64,000 nt of DNA from an uncultured bacterium (GCA_963696395.1 CAVOJZ010000002.1:134433-198432); one strand, 5' to 3'; shown: positions 1 to 21,900, counted from the stretch's first letter. Program-made: numbers and translations. The notes: a model not told the origin generated them from the letters alone.

Positions 1-551
1 CCCTCAAAGAGGAGCTTCACGAAGTGCACAAAGAAGACCCGGGAGCCCTCATCATTGAAGAGATGGGCGTCACTCACGGAGCGGCGCGAGTCGATATGGC
101 CGTCGTGAACGGCATGATTCACGGCTATGAATTGAAGAGTGATCTGGACACCCTTCGTCGCTTGCCGGAGCAAATGAAGGCGTACAACTCCGTTTTCGAT
201 CAGGTGACTCTGGTGGTCGGAAAACAGCACATATACGAAGCGATCAACGCCGTACCGGAATGGTGGGGCATCACGATTGCAAAAATCACTTCATCGAACG
301 GCTTCGTTTCATTTTGCACGATACGGGAAGCCGAAGAGAATCCGGACAAGGATAGTGTCGCCATCGCCGGTCTCTTGTGGCGAGACGAAGCACTCCACTT
401 GCTTGATGAAGCGGGCTGTGCGGAAGGAATCCGATCGAAGTCGCGACAGGTTTTATATGAACGGCTTGCCGTCGTTTTCGATCAACCGACGTTGCAGACG
501 AAAGTCCGGGAATGTCTGTCCGCTAGGACAATGTGGAGATTTGCGAAATGA
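1..551 (+). CDS. PD-(D/E)xK nuclease-fold protein, sce7726/MmcB-like; 5' end truncated by window edge
   Basis: ORF is open to position 1 in frame (LKEELHEV precedes the GTG at 24). D...ExK-type motif: RVDMAVV ... GYELKSD. 3' end overlaps the convergent Beta-protein gene by 29 nt. Confidence 0.5.
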   Translation, partial: LKEELHEVHKEDPGALIIEEMGVTHGAARVDMAVVNGMIHGYELKSDLDTLRRLPEQMKAYNSVFDQVTLVVGKQHIYEAINAVPEWWGITIAKITSSNGFVSFCTIREAEENPDKDSVAIAGLLWRDEALHLLDEAGCAEGIRSKSRQVLYERLAVVFDQPTLQTKVRECLSARTMWRFAK

Positions 552-1647
552 CGCAAGCAAGATGATGATTGATGCCTATCACGAGCCATGTCGTGGCGTT
601 ACCCGTTTGTTTTGACGAAAGATCTTTGCCTCTTGATTTGATCTGGGCATCGCCGTAACTGAAATTTTCGCCGAACTTCTTGTATTCCGGAAGTTCCGAT
701 AAAATACGGGCGTTGGCGAGATATTGTTGGGATTTTCCCCGCTGTCCGCGCATGACGATCCATTCGTCGTTAAGCGTGTAACGGATGCTCGCACTCGGCG
801 CAAAGAATTGGGTGGACTCTTTATAGATCGGATGCTGAATCGTGTAATCCGCGAAAGACGGATGGCGTTTCAATTTGGCATTTCGCTGTTGCGACCAATT
901 TTTCCAATCCGATCGGGGAAGCGGATTTTTCTCGCCGACCTTGCATCCGTTCAAATCGACGGGAAACGCACCGCTTGCGAAGATGAACGTTCGCCACGCC
1001 GTAAGATTCGGAATTTGTTGGCACAGGCTGAGGATGACGGGATACTCGTTATTCTCATCCTCTTTGAGGTCAACCAACAGGTCGATTTTGTCGACCGGTA
1101 CGCTGCATGAAGACAAAAATGAATCGAGACGCTTCATCAGATCCGGCATGTCCTTGAAATCCGAGCGAACCAAGCGAAGACATAAACCGTGGCCGTATTT
1201 TTTTGCGAGCGAGCACGAAACTTTTCCGACCTCTTCATCCGAACTCAAATTGACCACCGGAATCAAAGAAGCTCCGAGTGTCTCCCCGACCGTCAAAATC
1301 TGATTCATGCTTTCCGCTCGCAGCTCAGGGGTATAGAGCAAGCTGACGTCGATGAACATGGGATCGGCACCCCACTCTTTCGCGATCTCTTCGGGGATCG
1401 TTTGTAATTTTGTTCGCAAAGATCCCACTACCTCCACAAGTTGTTCTTCCCGTGTTTTCGTCTGACTTGGATTTTTGGGCGTTTTCGGACTTGGCATGAC
1501 AAGCTGGATCAACGGAGAAACAAGTTTCTTCTTTTCTGCGTCCAGACGAGCGACCAGTTCATTCAAAGCCCGCCGCTCGGCGGCTTTCCATTTCAATATC
1601 GGGATATAGTGTTCTTGATTAAACATGTTTTTATTTATTCCACGCAT
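523..1647 (-). CDS. Beta-protein family (sce7725-like) protein
   Basis: 374 aa. N-terminus YIPILKWKAAERRAL resembles Beta_protein/sce7725 family as recalled. Start overlaps stop of upstream gene (1631-1647), or alternatively starts at MFNQEHY at 1626. Confidence 0.5.
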   Translation of the reverse strand: MRGINKNMFNQEHYIPILKWKAAERRALNELVARLDAEKKKLVSPLIQLVMPSPKTPKNPSQTKTREEQLVEVVGSLRTKLQTIPEEIAKEWGADPMFIDVSLLYTPELRAESMNQILTVGETLGASLIPVVNLSSDEEVGKVSCSLAKKYGHGLCLRLVRSDFKDMPDLMKRLDSFLSSCSVPVDKIDLLVDLKEDENNEYPVILSLCQQIPNLTAWRTFIFASGAFPVDLNGCKVGEKNPLPRSDWKNWSQQRNAKLKRHPSFADYTIQHPIYKESTQFFAPSASIRYTLNDEWIVMRGQRGKSQQYLANARILSELPEYKKFGENFSYGDAQIKSRGKDLSSKQTGNATTWLVIGINHHLACVISQISTLS

Positions 1648-2851
1648 GCTCCGAAAAATATTTTCGAACCTTTGACTGCGTCATGATCGAATTCAAATAC
1701 TGGTAATTTCCGCCTTCGTAACGCATTTTCCCCGCCACGATCGCGATGTGGACGCCCAGATCCTTGGCCAAGCTTTCGGCGGCGATCGGCGACGGAATGA
1801 GCCGAGCGGGACTGTTGTCCCATTTCGCCGAAGGGACGAGTGTTTCTCCGGCAAGACGATCCGCATCGCCTTCCCGATGATCGTTCGGATCGGGATTGTC
1901 GAGATCGTCGTAAAACAGATTCGCTCCGTCATCGTAATGCAATGCTATATGGGCAAGTTCGTGCATGAGCGTGAACCAGAAATTATCGAGGCGATCGTGG
2001 CGAAGCGTCAATCCGATCACCGGATGTTTGTCGAACGCGAGCGTCGCGCCGTCGAGATAAGTTCTCGAGAAAGACGGCTCGACGACCAAAACGATCCCGT
2101 GCTTTTTCAGGAAATCAACGGCGCGAAGCGGCCCGTCGCTTTCGGCGCTCAAACGGACAAGCGTCCGCATGAATTCGGAGGTGATTGCCCCCTTTTTGAA
2201 CGGAGAAACATTTTTTACGGTGCGGGCTTTTTTGACGACATATGCCGACCATGCGGCAAGCGCATGCTTGTCCATGGGGCGAACGGAACGATACGTCGAT
2301 TTGCGCAACATGCCGAAGAGAGCCGCGGGCGATCCCACTGGACGGAAGAAATCTTCCATCAAATCGGCGATGTCGACGTTCTTCAACAACCGTTTGCCGA
2401 AATAGCCGCGCTCCCCCATTTCTTTTATCGGAAATTGATTCCAAGCGACGCCCTCTGGATTCCTGAATTCATCCACTTCTTTGACGAGCACCTTCGCGGG
2501 AATGCCGAGATTCGCCTCGAGCGAACGGATCATCGAGAGCGTCAAGGGGCGTTTGCGGGAAAGTATTTCCGAAACTTTGCTGCGGCTGCCGATATACGGA
2601 ATGAGATCGGTCGGTTTCAAATTTTGCTGTTCCATGCGAAAAAGAATCGCATCGACCGGATCCGGCAACGTCTCCGGAAAAGCTTTCGATTCATAATCAC
2701 GGATCAACGTGCCGAGCACGCTCAATTTTTCGCCAGCTTCCGATTCGGGATCGGGATCTTGCGCCATGAGCGACTCGATCATGGCAAGCGCCATCCGGTG
2801 ATCTTCTTCAGTTTTGATGATTTTGATTTTATCCATGTTCATATTCGCCAC
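1631..2851 (-). CDS. higA: HigA-like XRE-HTH antitoxin fused to ImmA/IrrE (peptidase M78) metallopeptidase domain
   Basis: N-terminal HigA-like region plus HTH (LKPTDLIPYIGSRSKVSEILSRKRPLTLSMIRSLEANLGIP). C-terminal HEXXH zinc motif HELAHIALH with downstream E/D residues. Overlaps higB by 13 nt. Confidence 0.75.
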   Translation of the reverse strand: MANMNMDKIKIIKTEEDHRMALAMIESLMAQDPDPESEAGEKLSVLGTLIRDYESKAFPETLPDPVDAILFRMEQQNLKPTDLIPYIGSRSKVSEILSRKRPLTLSMIRSLEANLGIPAKVLVKEVDEFRNPEGVAWNQFPIKEMGERGYFGKRLLKNVDIADLMEDFFRPVGSPAALFGMLRKSTYRSVRPMDKHALAAWSAYVVKKARTVKNVSPFKKGAITSEFMRTLVRLSAESDGPLRAVDFLKKHGIVLVVEPSFSRTYLDGATLAFDKHPVIGLTLRHDRLDNFWFTLMHELAHIALHYDDGANLFYDDLDNPDPNDHREGDADRLAGETLVPSAKWDNSPARLIPSPIAAESLAKDLGVHIAIVAGKMRYEGGNYQYLNSIMTQSKVRKYFSEHAWNK

Positions 2852-3123
2852 TTCATATACTCTTCGTGAGTTCCGGCCTTTTTGACGAGAACCATCTGAT
2901 TCTTGTAACTCACCTGCACGAGCAACCGATACTTGTTGCCCTTGATATTGAAAACGACGTGTCGATCGGCCAAAAAACTTGCGCTCCCATATCTGACCTT
3001 GATATCGGGGGGTTTATCCCACCGAGCGACATCAACCTCGGCGACCCAGGCATCAATTTGCGAACCGGCATCTTGATGCCTGGCTTTGAAATCCGCAATG
3101 ATGTTTTTGCCGAAGATTTGCAT
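2839..3123 (-). CDS. higB: HigB-family type II toxin (RelE/ParE superfamily mRNA interferase)
   Basis: 94 aa. Similarity to E. coli HigB core (DRHVVFNIKGNKYRLLVQV ... THEEY vs DKHYVFNVGGNELRVVAMV ... THKEY). First gene of a 3-gene minus-strand operon. Confidence 0.75.
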   Translation of the reverse strand: MQIFGKNIIADFKARHQDAGSQIDAWVAEVDVARWDKPPDIKVRYGSASFLADRHVVFNIKGNKYRLLVQVSYKNQMVLVKKAGTHEEYMKWRI

Positions 3124-3157: not shown

Positions 3158-3172
3158 TTCCCATATAGGGAA
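3158..3172. promoter_or_regulatory. Perfect 15-bp palindrome TTCCCATATAGGGAA about 35-50 bp upstream of higB start; candidate HigA operator
   Basis: Seen directly. A related half-site CTATATGG (reverse complement of CCATATAG) lies at 3210-3217. Confidence 0.3.
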
Positions 3173-3437
3173 TACTATACCGACCAAATTGGCCTGTCAA
3201 TACCCTCTTCTATATGGCCATTTGGGCTGGACTTTTTAATCAAGCCGCGCCATCATTGATGGTACAACTGAATATCAGATAGAGACCTAACCCCGTCAAG
3301 CTTTTCAAGGCTTTTCGGGCATGGTCGCAAACACGCAACGAGCATAAAGATCCCATCATCAGGATCGCTCGTTGCGTCGCGCGGGGAAACTCGTGCGGGA
3401 GCCTAAAAAACTCCGCCTGGTGGTGGGTTTTTTGTAA

Positions 3438-5408: not shown

Positions 5409-5450
5409 ATATGCGACGCAAAGGTGTGGTTTTATGCGGACTAAAACGTG

Positions 5451-5522
5451 TAGCTCCAGGGGGAATCGAACCCCCATTTGCGCCGTGAGAGGGCGCCGTC
5501 CTAGCCATTAGACGATGAAGCC
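5451..5522 (-). tRNA. tRNA-Glu (anticodon CUC)
   Basis: Hand-folded cloverleaf. Acceptor GGCTTCA/TGGAGCT (two G-U pairs), D-arm GTCT/GGAC, anticodon stem GCGCC/GGCGC, anticodon loop CTCTCAC, T-arm GGGGG-TTCGATT-CCCCC. 72 nt. Confidence 0.85.
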
Positions 5523-5570
5523 AGTATCGGAAAGATTATAGGAAGAAAGCCGCCGCCCCGCAAGGCAAAA

Positions 5571-6866
5571 TCAGTGCGGCGTCTGATCTCTGATCTCTTC
5601 CACCACCTTATTCAACTCCATCGCATGCGATCCTTTAACAAGCACCACGTCGCCTTTGCGCAAAAAATCCTGTATCGGCTTACGGGCTTCGTCGGCTGTA
5701 TCAAAACTTACGACGCGCTCGCGTTTCATTTTTGTCGCGCGAGCCGTTTCGGCGATAAACTTCGCGCGTGGGCCAACCGTGAATAAGGCATCCGCAGATT
5801 CGGCGGCCAATTTTCCCATACGTTCATGAACTTCAAGCGTGTATTTCCCGACCTCAAGCATATCCCCCAGTACGGCCACCCGACGCTTCGCCGGAAGCTC
5901 GCGGAGCGCATCGAGCGCCGATTGCATGGCGATCGGGCTTGCATTATACGAGTCATCGAGGATCCAAGTGAACTTTATTCCTGGCACGATTTGCATCCTT
6001 GCTTCGGCGGCTTTATACCCTGAAAGTGCTTCGGAGATGGCGACCAGGTTCATGCCAAACATGATGCCTACTGCTGCCGCAGCGGCGGCGGAATACGCAT
6101 GGGCGCGACCAAAGACCCCGTCGATACGCACCGGCACAACGCCGCTTCCATATTCCAATTTAAACGAGATGCCCATCGGCCTCCCCTCGGAGTCGCTCCG
6201 ATTTTCGAACCGCGAAACTCGCACTTCAACATCGCGGTTGAAACCATAGGTCATCACATGCGCCCGCGTACGTGATTGCAGATTACGAACAAGTTCGTCG
6301 TCACCATTCAATATGGCGTATCCTTCTGCCGGAAGATATTCAATGAGCCTCCCTTTTTCACGGGCGACTTCCATAGGACCCGGATAAAATTCCACATGCA
6401 CCGGCACATCGCCTACGGCCGTGATAATGCTCACGTTCGGACGGGCAATGGTTAATAAATATTTAATATCTCCGGGCCGGTCGGCGCCGTATTCAAGGAC
6501 AAGAATTTCCGGATATTCGCCGGACTTGAAAACAATCCTCCAGAGAGATGAGAAAACCACCTTAATCCAGAAACCGGCCTTGGCAAGCCGCGCGGTCCCA
6601 GCCGGCGTTTCCCGGCTGATAAGCTTTAAGTCACCGGCTTTCCAATCACCGAGAATCGCGAGCGGCAACCCGAGATCGTTATTTAAATTTCCCTCCAGCA
6701 CGCGTACCCGACGCCCTTTCTCAAGGACGGCCTTCACTGCAAGCTTGGTAGACGTTTTTCCGGCGCTTCCGGTAATGCCAATCACGCCGGGTCGATAGCG
6801 CCACAAGGTGAGCTGAGCCAATTTGCGCAAGATCGCCCGCAGCATTGAAACGAAAAATTTTTTCAT
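5571..6866 (-). CDS. murF: UDP-N-acetylmuramoyl-tripeptide--D-alanyl-D-alanine ligase
   Basis: Mur ligase P-loop GITGSAGKTSTK. Length 431 aa. Position next to ftsI. Confidence 0.9.
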   Translation of the reverse strand: MKKFFVSMLRAILRKLAQLTLWRYRPGVIGITGSAGKTSTKLAVKAVLEKGRRVRVLEGNLNNDLGLPLAILGDWKAGDLKLISRETPAGTARLAKAGFWIKVVFSSLWRIVFKSGEYPEILVLEYGADRPGDIKYLLTIARPNVSIITAVGDVPVHVEFYPGPMEVAREKGRLIEYLPAEGYAILNGDDELVRNLQSRTRAHVMTYGFNRDVEVRVSRFENRSDSEGRPMGISFKLEYGSGVVPVRIDGVFGRAHAYSAAAAAAVGIMFGMNLVAISEALSGYKAAEARMQIVPGIKFTWILDDSYNASPIAMQSALDALRELPAKRRVAVLGDMLEVGKYTLEVHERMGKLAAESADALFTVGPRAKFIAETARATKMKRERVVSFDTADEARKPIQDFLRKGDVVLVKGSHAMELNKVVEEIRDQTPH

Positions 6867-6872
6867 AAAAAT

Positions 6873-8510
6873 TTAATGGGTTGCGCCAATCCTGTCGGGA
6901 GGAATATTGTAATAATTGATGATGTACTGCGACAATTCTTTAAATGCGGGAACGACGCTTTCTGCCGCGAGCGAGGTGCTGGGAAGCGTGTTCAAACGGA
7001 TAAGCGCGATAAAGCGCGGATTTGAAGCTGGACCAAAGCCAATGTAGGAATCGATCAGGTTATTCGTGTAGCCTCCATGGACAAGATCGGGGATGAATGC
7101 GCTGCCGGTCTTTCCCGCAAGCGAATAGCCCTCGATATTCGCGACCTGGGCTTTATCAACCGCAGACACCATCATCTGCGTCACCTGCGCCGCAGTGCTC
7201 GTCGAGATAACGCGCCGAATCGGCAACGGCGAGAGGTCAGCGTTCAAATACGGCCGCATCAAGGTTCCCCCGTTCGCAATTGCGCTGATGGCTGTTAAAA
7301 GTTCGATCGGCGTCATGGAAATTCCCTGCCCGTATGCCGCGGTGTCAAAATTGATCTGCGGCGCCTTCGGCGTCAGCTCACGCAGATTTCCCGCAACTTC
7401 GCCCGGCAGGTCAATGCCGGTTTTCTCATCAAGCCCGAATTTTTTGAGATACGAATCGAATATGCCGTCTCCGATCTGATTTTCAGCAAAAATGGCACCG
7501 GTATTGATCGAGTGCTCGATGACTTCCGTCATCGTCGTGCCCGGACCGTATGGCCCGTGAGTCGTGTAGTCGTAATTCGTAATGGTAGCCGGGCCGATTT
7601 TCAAAAACCCTTTGTCATCATAGGTGGTATCAGGCGTAATTTTTCCCGCATCAATGCCGGCAGCCATGGTAATAACCTTTAGGATGGATCCGGGTTCGTA
7701 AACCGCTTGCACGTTGGTATTCAAAAAATTGCCGATTGGAGAATCGCCGTAGTTGTTCGGATCAAAACTCGGATCGCCCCCCATCGCAAGAATTTTTCCG
7801 GTTTGCGGGTCGGCGACAATCACGCTCCCTCCCGTCGCACCATTTGCCGTAACCAAGTCGTCGAGCACTTTCTCGGCTTCGATTTGAATATTAGGATCCA
7901 AGGTGAGCTGGAGATCGGATCCTCCGGCAATTGACGGACCGCTTGTGGCGACCCCCTCGAGATAATCATTGTAAAATCCCTCGAGCCCATAGTGCCCGCT
8001 TTCGCCGCTGTTATCGGCGTTGGGGCCGACATAACCCAGTACCTGCGCCGCAACCGTGCTCAACGGATAATAACGATCATCTTCGAGGTCGGAATACACT
8101 CCTTTAATATTCGCTGCTTCGACCTGAGCCGCAATGCTCGGATCTGCTTTTCTCACCAAGAGTTCATATGAATCATCTTTTTTTGCAAATACATTCTCGA
8201 GAGTTGTAACTGGCATATTGAGAATCGGCGCGATGGTATTTGCGGCTTCCTGCACGTCATCGATTGATGACGGTACCGCGTAGATGATGGGGAATGCTTT
8301 TTCGATGGCAGCCGGCAGTTCGTTGCCGCTTTGGTCGGTGAAATAAATCGCTCCCCGTTCTCCGATTGCTCCCTGCGACGCCTCCGCTTCGGAAGCAGCC
8401 CGCGCAAAATAATAATCTCCTTTTACCAATTGAACCTGATAAAGATGGAAAAGCAGCGCTGCGTATCCGATAAAAACAAACCCAATAACTATCGAGAAAC
8501 GATAGGCCAT
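6873..8510 (-). CDS. ftsI: Penicillin-binding protein 2/3 family transpeptidase (FtsI-like)
   Basis: N-terminal TM anchor. SxxK (GSILK), SGN-like and KTGS (AGKTGSA) motifs. dcw cluster context. Confidence 0.85.
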   Translation of the reverse strand: MAYRFSIVIGFVFIGYAALLFHLYQVQLVKGDYYFARAASEAEASQGAIGERGAIYFTDQSGNELPAAIEKAFPIIYAVPSSIDDVQEAANTIAPILNMPVTTLENVFAKKDDSYELLVRKADPSIAAQVEAANIKGVYSDLEDDRYYPLSTVAAQVLGYVGPNADNSGESGHYGLEGFYNDYLEGVATSGPSIAGGSDLQLTLDPNIQIEAEKVLDDLVTANGATGGSVIVADPQTGKILAMGGDPSFDPNNYGDSPIGNFLNTNVQAVYEPGSILKVITMAAGIDAGKITPDTTYDDKGFLKIGPATITNYDYTTHGPYGPGTTMTEVIEHSINTGAIFAENQIGDGIFDSYLKKFGLDEKTGIDLPGEVAGNLRELTPKAPQINFDTAAYGQGISMTPIELLTAISAIANGGTLMRPYLNADLSPLPIRRVISTSTAAQVTQMMVSAVDKAQVANIEGYSLAGKTGSAFIPDLVHGGYTNNLIDSYIGFGPASNPRFIALIRLNTLPSTSLAAESVVPAFKELSQYIINYYNIPPDRIGATH

Positions 8511-20452: not shown

Positions 20453-21900
20453 TTGCCTTTCGGCCGCATGAGCGGGAAGAACACCGTCTCGCGAACCGGC
20501 TTATCCATCAAGATGGCGAACACGCGCTCCGACATTCCGAAACCGGCGGTCGGCGGCATTCCATATTCCAAGGCTTTCAAAAAATCATCGTCGAGATGCA
20601 TCGCTTCCAAGTCCCCTTTCTCGCGAAGCTTCATTTGCGCTTCGAATCGCTGGCGCTGATCTTGCGGATCGTTCAGCTCGGAATAGCCATTGCCAAGCTC
20701 GCTGCCGCACGCCACAATCTGGAACCGATCGGCAACCTCCGGATTTTCCGGAGATGCCTTGGAAAGCGGTGAAACAATGAGTGGGTGTCCAACCAGGAAG
20801 CATGGCTCGATAAGTTTGGGGCGAACGGTCTTCTTATAGATAAGGTCAATCAAGCGTCCTTTTTGCAATCCCTTCTCGGGAGCAAGTCCCAATTCTTTTG
20901 CTTTCGAAAAAAGCTCTTCGTGGGTAGCAGTGGTTGGATCAAGACCGGCTTCTTTCTTGAATGCCTTCACGTAATCAACCTCCGGCCACGGTTTGTCCCA
21001 GTCAATGTGATAACCGAATGAAGCGGTTTTCAAACCGCCTGTTGTCCGCTCGATTACAAACTTCAGCATTTTCTGCGTGAGCGTCATCATGTCCCGGCAA
21101 TCGTGATATGCCCAATAGCATTCCATGAACGTGAAGTCCTGCAGATGCTCGCGGTCAATCCCCTCATTCCTAAAGACACGGCCGATTTCAAAAATCTTTT
21201 CGAACCCTCCGGTGACCAATTTTTTCAATTGAAGCTCAAGCGAAATGCGGAGGAAAAATTCCGTATCAAGCGCATTGTGATGCGTGCGAAACGGCTCCGC
21301 TTCGGCGCCGCCGGCCATGGATTCGAGCACGCTCGTTTCTACTTCCAGAAATCCCTCGTTCTCCAAGAACTCACGGACGCTCGTCCAGAAAATCGCTTTT
21401 TTTACAAAAAGATCCTTCACTTCAGGATGAGCGATGAGGTCGAGATATCGCTCGCGCAAGCGTGTCTCGATATCTTCCAAACCTTCCCACTTGTCCGGCA
21501 ATGGGGTGAGCGACTTTGAGGCCATCTGCACGTGGTGCGCCTCAATGCTTCGTTCGCCGCGCTTTGTCACAAAAAGCGGCCCGGTGGCGGAAATAAAATC
21601 ACCGATATCAATCACTGAGCGCCAGAACTCCAAATCTTTTAACTCTTCTCCTTTGAATACAACCTGAATTTTTCCCCGACCGTCTTCAAGATCCGCAAAC
21701 ATGATCTTCCCCTGGTCGCGCAGGTTTCGGATTCGCCCCACGAGCGAGATGCTTTCTTTGCTCTTTTCAATCTCGCTGAAATGATCGAGTGCGTGCGAAA
21801 TCGAGAAGCTCCGCTTTACGCGAGCCGGATACGGGTCAAGCTTTGCCTTTCGGATAACCTCAAGCTTTTTACGTCGTTCTGCGAGAAGATCTTCGAGCAT
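20449..21900 (-). CDS. lysS: Lysine--tRNA ligase (class II)
   Basis: N-terminal OB anticodon-binding domain. Class II motifs including FRNEGID (motif 2) and GxGxGxERL-like motif 3. 483 aa. Confidence 0.95.
   Translation of the reverse strand: MLEDLLAERRKKLEVIRKAKLDPYPARVKRSFSISHALDHFSEIEKSKESISLVGRIRNLRDQGKIMFADLEDGRGKIQVVFKGEELKDLEFWRSVIDIGDFISATGPLFVTKRGERSIEAHHVQMASKSLTPLPDKWEGLEDIETRLRERYLDLIAHPEVKDLFVKKAIFWTSVREFLENEGFLEVETSVLESMAGGAEAEPFRTHHNALDTEFFLRISLELQLKKLVTGGFEKIFEIGRVFRNEGIDREHLQDFTFMECYWAYHDCRDMMTLTQKMLKFVIERTTGGLKTASFGYHIDWDKPWPEVDYVKAFKKEAGLDPTTATHEELFSKAKELGLAPEKGLQKGRLIDLIYKKTVRPKLIEPCFLVGHPLIVSPLSKASPENPEVADRFQIVACGSELGNGYSELNDPQDQRQRFEAQMKLREKGDLEAMHLDDDFLKALEYGMPPTAGFGMSERVFAILMDKPVRETVFFPLMRPKGK

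Follow-up and report, generated by a model that had tools for sequence, protein, structure and literature searches.

Is the four-gene locus at the left edge of this stretch of DNA a new kind of immunity, or a known defence system in an unfamiliar form? The stretch, hereafter the window, covers 64,000 nucleotides (nt) from an uncultured bacterium (GCA_963696395.1, CAVOJZ010000002.1:134433-198432). Three genes of its minus strand, A, B and C, meet a convergent plus-strand gene, D. A first-pass annotation, made from the sequence alone, had found no named anti-phage system that matches the locus. This claim falls on the very point that the annotation had named as decisive against it. A, B and C correspond to PD-Lambda-2 of the PADLOC database, and C with D, a beta gene and a convergent cII gene, has the layout of the back half of the gop-beta-cII system of phage P4. 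We are highly confident that the four-gene locus is a member of the PD-lambda-2 anti-phage family. What is new is a four-gene PD-lambda-2 that keeps a P4-type cII partner; the system itself was already named, and the locus is no new kind of immunity.

The assignment to PD-lambda-2 follows from the matches of A, B and C to all three PADLOC PD-Lambda-2 models, nearly over their full length. Gene A (2839..3123, minus strand) is the first gene of the operon and encodes a HigB-like RelE-fold protein of 94 amino acids (aa). The protein matches PD-Lambda-2_A (PDLC03981) at 6.6e-38 over positions 1-93 of 94 and the Pfam family HigB_toxin (PF09907) at 1e-24. It also resembles the E. coli HigB structures 5ycl and 5ifg (1.7e-5). 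Conservation of residues R66, G84-T85-H86 and E88-Y89 is 95% or higher across 53 four-gene loci. Gene B (1631..2851, minus strand; 406 aa) joins a HigA-like antitoxin/helix-turn-helix (HTH) N-terminus to an ImmA/IrrE (M78) metallopeptidase. Its product matches PD-Lambda-2_B (PDLC03982) at 5.2e-146 over positions 1-399 of 402 and Pfam Peptidase_M78 at 3.7e-10. Residues 8-115 resemble E. coli HigA structures (4e-12), and the whole protein is 41% identical, over its full length, to the E. coli PD-lambda-2 B protein. H297, E298 and H301 of the MHELAHIALH motif, and also E327, do not vary among 10 homologues, of which the most distant is 38% identical. Such invariance of the HExxH...E residues indicates that the peptidase site of B is intact. 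Gene C (523..1647, minus strand; 374 aa) encodes a P4 beta-like protein that matches Pfam Beta_protein (PF14350) at 4.3e-52 and PD-Lambda-2_C (PDLC03984) at 3.4e-36. It is 24% identical, again over its full length, to the C protein of an E. coli PD-lambda-2 locus. AlphaFold predicts a TIM barrel (pLDDT, the model's own confidence score, 90.6) whose structural neighbours are generic only.

PD-lambda-2 was recovered from E. coli ECOR42 by functional selection and validated by Vassallo et al. 2022 (PMC9519451). Its first protein is HigB-like, its second joins a HigA-like Xre HTH to a peptidase and its third is a relative of a P4 antitoxin; the phenotype is abortive infection (PMC9519451). Overexpression of the E. 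coli B protein by itself poisons the cells, and A rescues them. C is dispensable for this neutralisation but necessary for protection from lambda-vir (PMC9519451). The window has A, B and C in the identical order, on one strand and as a tight operon. It differs from the three-gene archetype in its conserved convergent fourth gene. Moreover, PDLC03981 is the model that window A matches best, whereas the proteobacterial loci match PDLC03978.

The fourth gene, D (1..551, plus strand), runs open into the window edge. It is complete on the Logan contig L001, an extended copy of the locus, where it encodes 200 aa (P0121); the window is without the first 18 codons. D is a cII-like protein of the sce7726 family, with a restriction-endonuclease-like, PD-(D/E)xK fold. 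The fragment present in the window matches NCBIfam sce7726_fam (NF033832) at 4.2e-45, and full-length D reaches 164 bits where the cutoff is 70. D also matches the PADLOC 'cll' model (2.4e-28) and is 32% identical to P4 cII (3e-19). Residues D49, E61 and K63 of its RVDMAVV...GYELK motif are invariant in 50 homologues and at least 95% conserved in 54 sequences derived from the loci described below. The cII family is large, with 4,715 clusters at 50% identity for E <= 1e-3 and 2,729 for E <= 1e-10. Sequence-profile searches of the PDB with D and C gave no usable match. A scan of viral contigs with the D alignment returned a single partial locus, and we make no claim that this D subfamily is phage-borne.

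Most of the protein calls of the first-pass annotation are borne out by these results. HigB, HigA-HTH plus M78, Beta_protein and sce7726-type PD-(D/E)xK all find their counterparts in Pfam, in NCBIfam or in the HigA and HigB structures. The two motifs that it had singled out, HELAHIALH and RVDMAVV...GYELK, have catalytic residues that are invariant in homologues, and the HEXXH...E site that it had proposed to check proves complete. The label 'sce7725-like' given to C has to be dropped. The NCBIfam scan matched no model to window C at E <= 0.1, nor to P4 beta and three further beta proteins at E <= 0.01. Relative to the sce7725/sce7726 gene pair, D therefore belongs to sce7726_fam, whereas the adjacent C fails sce7725 membership.

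D and C lead to the second named system. The gop-beta-cII locus of satellite phage P4 (Ghisotti 1990, cited by Rousset et al. 2022, PMC9122126) protects against lambda and P1 (PMC9122126). It is triggered by a phage accessory gene, which results in cell killing (bioRxiv 10.1101/2023.04.06.535777), and experiments on P4 showed that the Gop toxin is neutralised by beta. The P4 genome carries gop and beta co-stranded, with cII converging on beta; the cII product is a 'sce7726 family protein' in RefSeq. The window has the same back half in the same geometry, beta -> <- cII. D and P4 cII both belong to sce7726_fam, and C and P4 beta both belong to Pfam Beta_protein. The position of Gop is filled by HigB plus HigA-M78. 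The gop model matched none of the four window proteins, whereas the P4 Gop control was found at 4.8e-70. There are further differences. The similarity between C and P4 beta is weak and C-terminal only (BLASTP, 25% over ~100 aa; PADLOC 'beta', 2.4e-9). P4 cII has 264 aa compared with 200 aa for D. Finally, P4 beta and cII do not overlap, being separated by a 27-nt gap that holds a terminator, whereas C and D overlap. Judged by sequence comparison, the locus is a PD-lambda-2 front followed by a P4-type back, and the two named systems are linked by a shared beta/cII core.

An open reading frame (ORF) listing of the window returned A, B, C and D at coordinates identical to those of the first-pass annotation, and the convergent 3' overlap of 29 nt between C and D was reproduced. 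The same-strand overlaps of 13 and 17 nt, which it had also reported, hold if B starts at GTG-2851 and C at ATG-1647. They do not hold with the two starts that appear likely, ATG-2842 for B and ATG-1626 for C. In this case, A and B overlap by 4 nt (ATGA) and C begins after a 4-nt gap behind the stop codon of B. The public B protein P0001 (403 aa) starts at ATG-2842 and is 100% identical to window B. An exact lookup with the 406-aa form gave no match because public gene calls begin at ATG-2842. Met8 of C, encoded by ATG-1626, is invariant across 52 homologues, which favours this codon as the start of C. Whichever start codons apply, A, B and C are tightly packed on a single strand.

Is the fourth gene a regular part of the system? 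The B alignment was scanned against one genome per GTDB species, and the 80 loci retained are the best of 553 relatives by similarity to window B. They were scored using tblastn and jackhmmer profiles. A-B-C with a convergent D was found in 50 of the 80 loci. Six loci have a full-length C and no D, three have a C fragment only, 14 have no C, and in seven the contig ends before any D could be visible. Thus, within this set, D is present in 50/56 loci that have a full-length C and readable downstream DNA. The earlier idea of the convergent gene as part of one module with the operon is supported by this count, and the four genes do occur together elsewhere. D-bearing loci were found in Patescibacteria lineages, Planctomycetota, Bacteroidota, Armatimonadota and Omnitrophota as well as in Acidobacteriota, Chloroflexota, Desulfobacterota and Proteobacteria. 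Most of the six loci that have C and lack D are from Proteobacteria (Pseudomonas, Herminiimonas, Thiobacillus).

The convergent overlap itself is a constant feature. C and D overlap at their 3' ends in 54/54 D-bearing loci (the 50 above plus L001-L004), by 26-137 nt with a mode of 50 nt. Three B homologues on unrelated contigs show the succession HigB, M78, Beta_protein and then a convergent PF26915 (Phage_P4_cII) gene, with wholly different flanks. Across the loci, D is better conserved than C, with 42-71% identity to the window protein compared with 24-56%. We consider it likely that D is a functional part of the system in this clade.

The surroundings of some of these loci deserve mention. 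The four-gene homologues on L002 and L004 sit among defence-type genes (HEPN_AbiV, DUF6119, AAA_15/AAA_21, a Prok-E2/ThiF/JAB cluster, DpnII-MboI and PDDEXK_1), and a DUF6119 gene also adjoins one E. coli PD-lambda-2 locus. Four other loci (L055, L065, L066 and L077) have an intact A-B pair with a short fragment of Beta_protein behind it (E 1e-14 to 1e-29). These fragments resemble decayed C genes and suggest longer systems as the origin of some loci with A and B only.

The E. coli loci have a different downstream side. A blastn search with a Herminiimonas operon retrieved E. coli loci whose genes carry the annotations HigB, ImmA-IrrE and beta family protein and which lie in integrase-flanked islands. 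They were found in 8 of 5,426 complete genomes, a number that is an undercount owing to the distant query and is not to be taken as a frequency. The genes that follow these operons vary, being annotated as hypothetical protein, SIR2 or DUF6119. The ECOR42 operon measures 2,625 bp, as does that of L088, and its clone reached no further than 396 bp past C. Since the clone ends there and the E. coli loci are without D, the validated system works without cII.

The region upstream of A carries two elements relevant to control of the operon. A putative sigma-70-like promoter, TTGACA-17-TAGTAT (3172..3200, minus strand), lies ~49 nt upstream of the A start and scores 10/12 in a consensus scan. In most homologous loci, a TTGAC(A/T)...TA(t/a)AAT element is found at the matching relative position. 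The palindrome TTCCC-TATAT-GGGAA, of the form TTCCC-N5-GGGAA (3158..3172), abuts or overlaps the -10 hexamer. The shorter pattern TCCC-N5-GGGA occurs at most 130 nt upstream of A in 53/75 homologous loci, compared with 8 occurrences in the 680 kb of remaining locus sequence. It is also present in loci with A and B only and in one Pseudomonas locus; L085, a Pseudomonas locus of the archetype type, has a similar palindrome upstream of A. As far as the sequence can tell, the palindrome is most simply viewed as a candidate operator for the HigA-type HTH of B. The sole other TCCC-N5-GGGA in the 64-kb window, at 20869-20881 (TCCCTTCTCGGGA), is probably due to chance.

How could the four proteins work together? 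The explanation that we favour, with moderate confidence as a whole, is that of a four-gene PD-lambda-2 family member working by toxin-antitoxin-like abortive infection. From our analysis, abortive infection appears to be the most likely mode of the four-gene locus. A specific chain of events can be proposed, although it is doubtful that all of its links are correct. B would bind TTCCC-N5-GGGAA through its HigA-type HTH and thereby autorepress A-B-C. A and the HigA-like domain of B would form a mutually neutralising complex. Beta and cII would provide a shared sensing and effector core, in which beta would restrain its toxic partners until a phage cue is received. Upon this cue, with beta involved in sensing, the M78 domain would cleave within the complex, as in ImmA, IrrE and CapP. 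Cleavage would free the HigB-type RNase and derepress the operon, and growth of the infected cell would be arrested. The cII nuclease may act on DNA as an effector of killing or may instead generate a signal.

Several observations weigh against this explanation. The experimental data stem from the three-gene E. coli PD-lambda-2 and from P4, not from four-gene forms. The D profile gave no match in three E. coli PD-lambda-2 loci (L088-L090), whereas the same profile finds P4 cII (2e-24). The archetype works without D, and D may thus be dispensable or have a separate role. The fraction 50/56 describes a clade ranked near window B, not the whole family. Window C is a distant member, scoring 123 bits with PD-Lambda-2_C compared with 449-464 bits for the Pseudomonas and Herminiimonas C proteins, and the predicted fold of C, as a generic TIM barrel, is uninformative on its chemistry. 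We infer all of the proteolysis, RNase, nuclease and operator-binding steps. Finally, we know of no defence assay in small-genome bacteria such as Patescibacteria.

Could the back half act on its own? Beta and cII may form a self-sufficient two-gene defence or exclusion system, onto which HigB and HigA-M78 have docked as a separable module of the toxin-antitoxin type, so that two systems would share one operon. We regard this as unlikely, though several plasmids speak for it. The convergent overlapping beta/cII pair is found alone on a phage-plasmid of E. coli STEC1024 (L093 4486-6121), on a B. cereus plasmid and on a Rhodococcus plasmid (L095, L096). On these plasmids, neither tblastn nor ORF inspection detected A or B. 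The STEC1024 pair sits amid phage replication and antitermination genes. The A+B pair also occurs alone, on Deefgea, Paraburkholderia and Acinetobacter plasmids and in the 14/80 genome loci without C. The front part can moreover be of a third type. On the Agrobacterium fabrum plasmid pAt2788b (L094 6115-7846), DUF6932, XRE-M78 and beta genes are followed by a convergent sce7726 gene. The DUF6932 protein has 162 aa and a weak match to PADLOC PDC-M63A, and the match of the XRE-M78 protein to PD-Lambda-2_B begins at model position 71. This locus adjoins reverse transcriptase and SIR2 genes, and several Rhizobiaceae plasmids appear to have the same arrangement. With Gop in P4, HigB plus HigA-M78 in the window and DUF6932 plus XRE-M78 in Agrobacterium, the front partner is swappable and the beta -> <- cII pair constant.

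The idea of two independent systems meets a difficulty in E. coli, where deletion of C abolishes PD-lambda-2 defence (PMC9519451). Without C, A and B are thus not protective, which ties C to them in function. The packing of A-B-C as a single operon and the joint occurrence of the four genes across more than 10 phyla also argue against it. As for the plasmids, the PLSDB gene tables are incomplete, though the ORF and tblastn checks revealed no hidden partner. A broader view can be put forward tentatively. Beta/cII would be an autonomous and widespread two-gene immune core to which varied fronts were added repeatedly. PD-lambda-2 and gop-beta-cII would then form one superfamily, the three-gene E. 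coli archetype would have arisen by loss of cII, and the cII nuclease would be the principal effector in most members.

The model of the first-pass annotation saw in B a repressor gated by a protease, as in CapH/CapP or ImmR/ImmA. The sole job of B would be to derepress beta and the nuclease after DNA damage or infection, HigB being an extra toxin. This model is improbable. ImmR/ImmA, DdrO/IrrE and CapH/CapP do place an M78 HExxH...E site beside an XRE-type HTH, as in B, and the HExxH of B is intact. The M78 domain of B matches the capP and RmrA models, although weakly (4e-6 to 1e-2; capP, 4.1e-6), and the conserved candidate operator at the promoter would also suit a repressor. However, HTH and protease are separate proteins in these systems, unlike the single polypeptide of B. 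A separate HTH repressor gene that could provide the protease substrate was not found in the locus by ORF and Pfam searches; the sole HTH lies within B. In addition, D is on the opposite strand with its own promoter, so that derepression of A-B-C cannot directly switch it on. The toxicity of B and its neutralisation by A in E. coli (PMC9519451) are not predicted for a pure repressor either.

Comparison with E. coli K-12 HigBA (PDB 5IFG/5YCL) bears on the last alternative. Window A is like HigB and residues 8-115 of B are like HigA. As in HigBA, the toxin-like gene comes first, and the candidate operator of the window lies at the promoter like the palindromic operator of HigBA. However, B carries ~280 aa more, with the M78 peptidase, and its HigA part makes up the N-terminal quarter of a fusion of 403-406 aa; the window thus has no small stand-alone HigA antitoxin. 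Roles are also reversed in E. coli PD-lambda-2, where a toxic B is rescued by the HigB-like A. Beyond the left edge of the window, directly upstream of D and on the same strand, the extended contig encodes an IS256/Mutator-family transposase (PF00872, 2e-84; L001 5664-6716), which suggests that the locus lies at a mobile-element junction. The locus could be read as a HigBA-type addiction module of the ordinary kind, one that keeps a mobile element stable and takes no part in phage defence, with C and D as unrelated passengers. This reading would fit the transposase, the HigB and HigA structure matches and the relatives on plasmids and in integrase-flanked islands. It is improbable given that synteny with C and D is kept across phyla despite differing flanks, that defence by the E. 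coli homologue, which requires C, has been validated experimentally (PMC9519451), and that B has a conserved and intact 280-aa peptidase extension absent from plain HigA.

With the locus read as a four-gene PD-lambda-2, some consequences for annotation can be drawn. PD-lambda-2 and gop-beta-cII are validated defence systems that databases handle as separate three-gene systems. A conserved partner with a nuclease fold is absent from the current PD-lambda-2 definitions, at least as far as the sampled clade is concerned. The shared core, the D partner and the candidate operator argue for revising the definitions used in PADLOC and DefenseFinder. Our literature search retrieved no study of mechanism later than 2022 for PD-lambda-2, and none for sce7725/sce7726, and an mBio 2025 paper on RelE/ParE does not mention this architecture. 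The nuclease and peptidase active sites, the operator and swaps of the front module provide handles on the mechanism.

The remainder of the window gives some indications on the host. A full-length match to the Rfam LOOT RNA (RF03000; 65.9 bits for a gathering score of 46.4) is found at 3284-3414 on the plus strand. It is intergenic, 161 nt upstream of gene A and divergent from it. We take LOOT to be an orphan structured RNA of Parcubacteria/OD1. From this RNA, the 0.91-Mb source contig and the closest homologues, which bear Patescibacteria names, the host is possibly a small-genome bacterium of the Patescibacteria. Housekeeping genes begin ~2.3 kb away from the operon (5450-8510, minus strand). 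They comprise a tRNA-Glu gene (5450-5522), one of 10 tRNA genes in the window, followed by two ORFs putatively identified from their translations, a MurF-like ligase (5571-6866) and a PBP2/FtsI-like protein (6873-8510).

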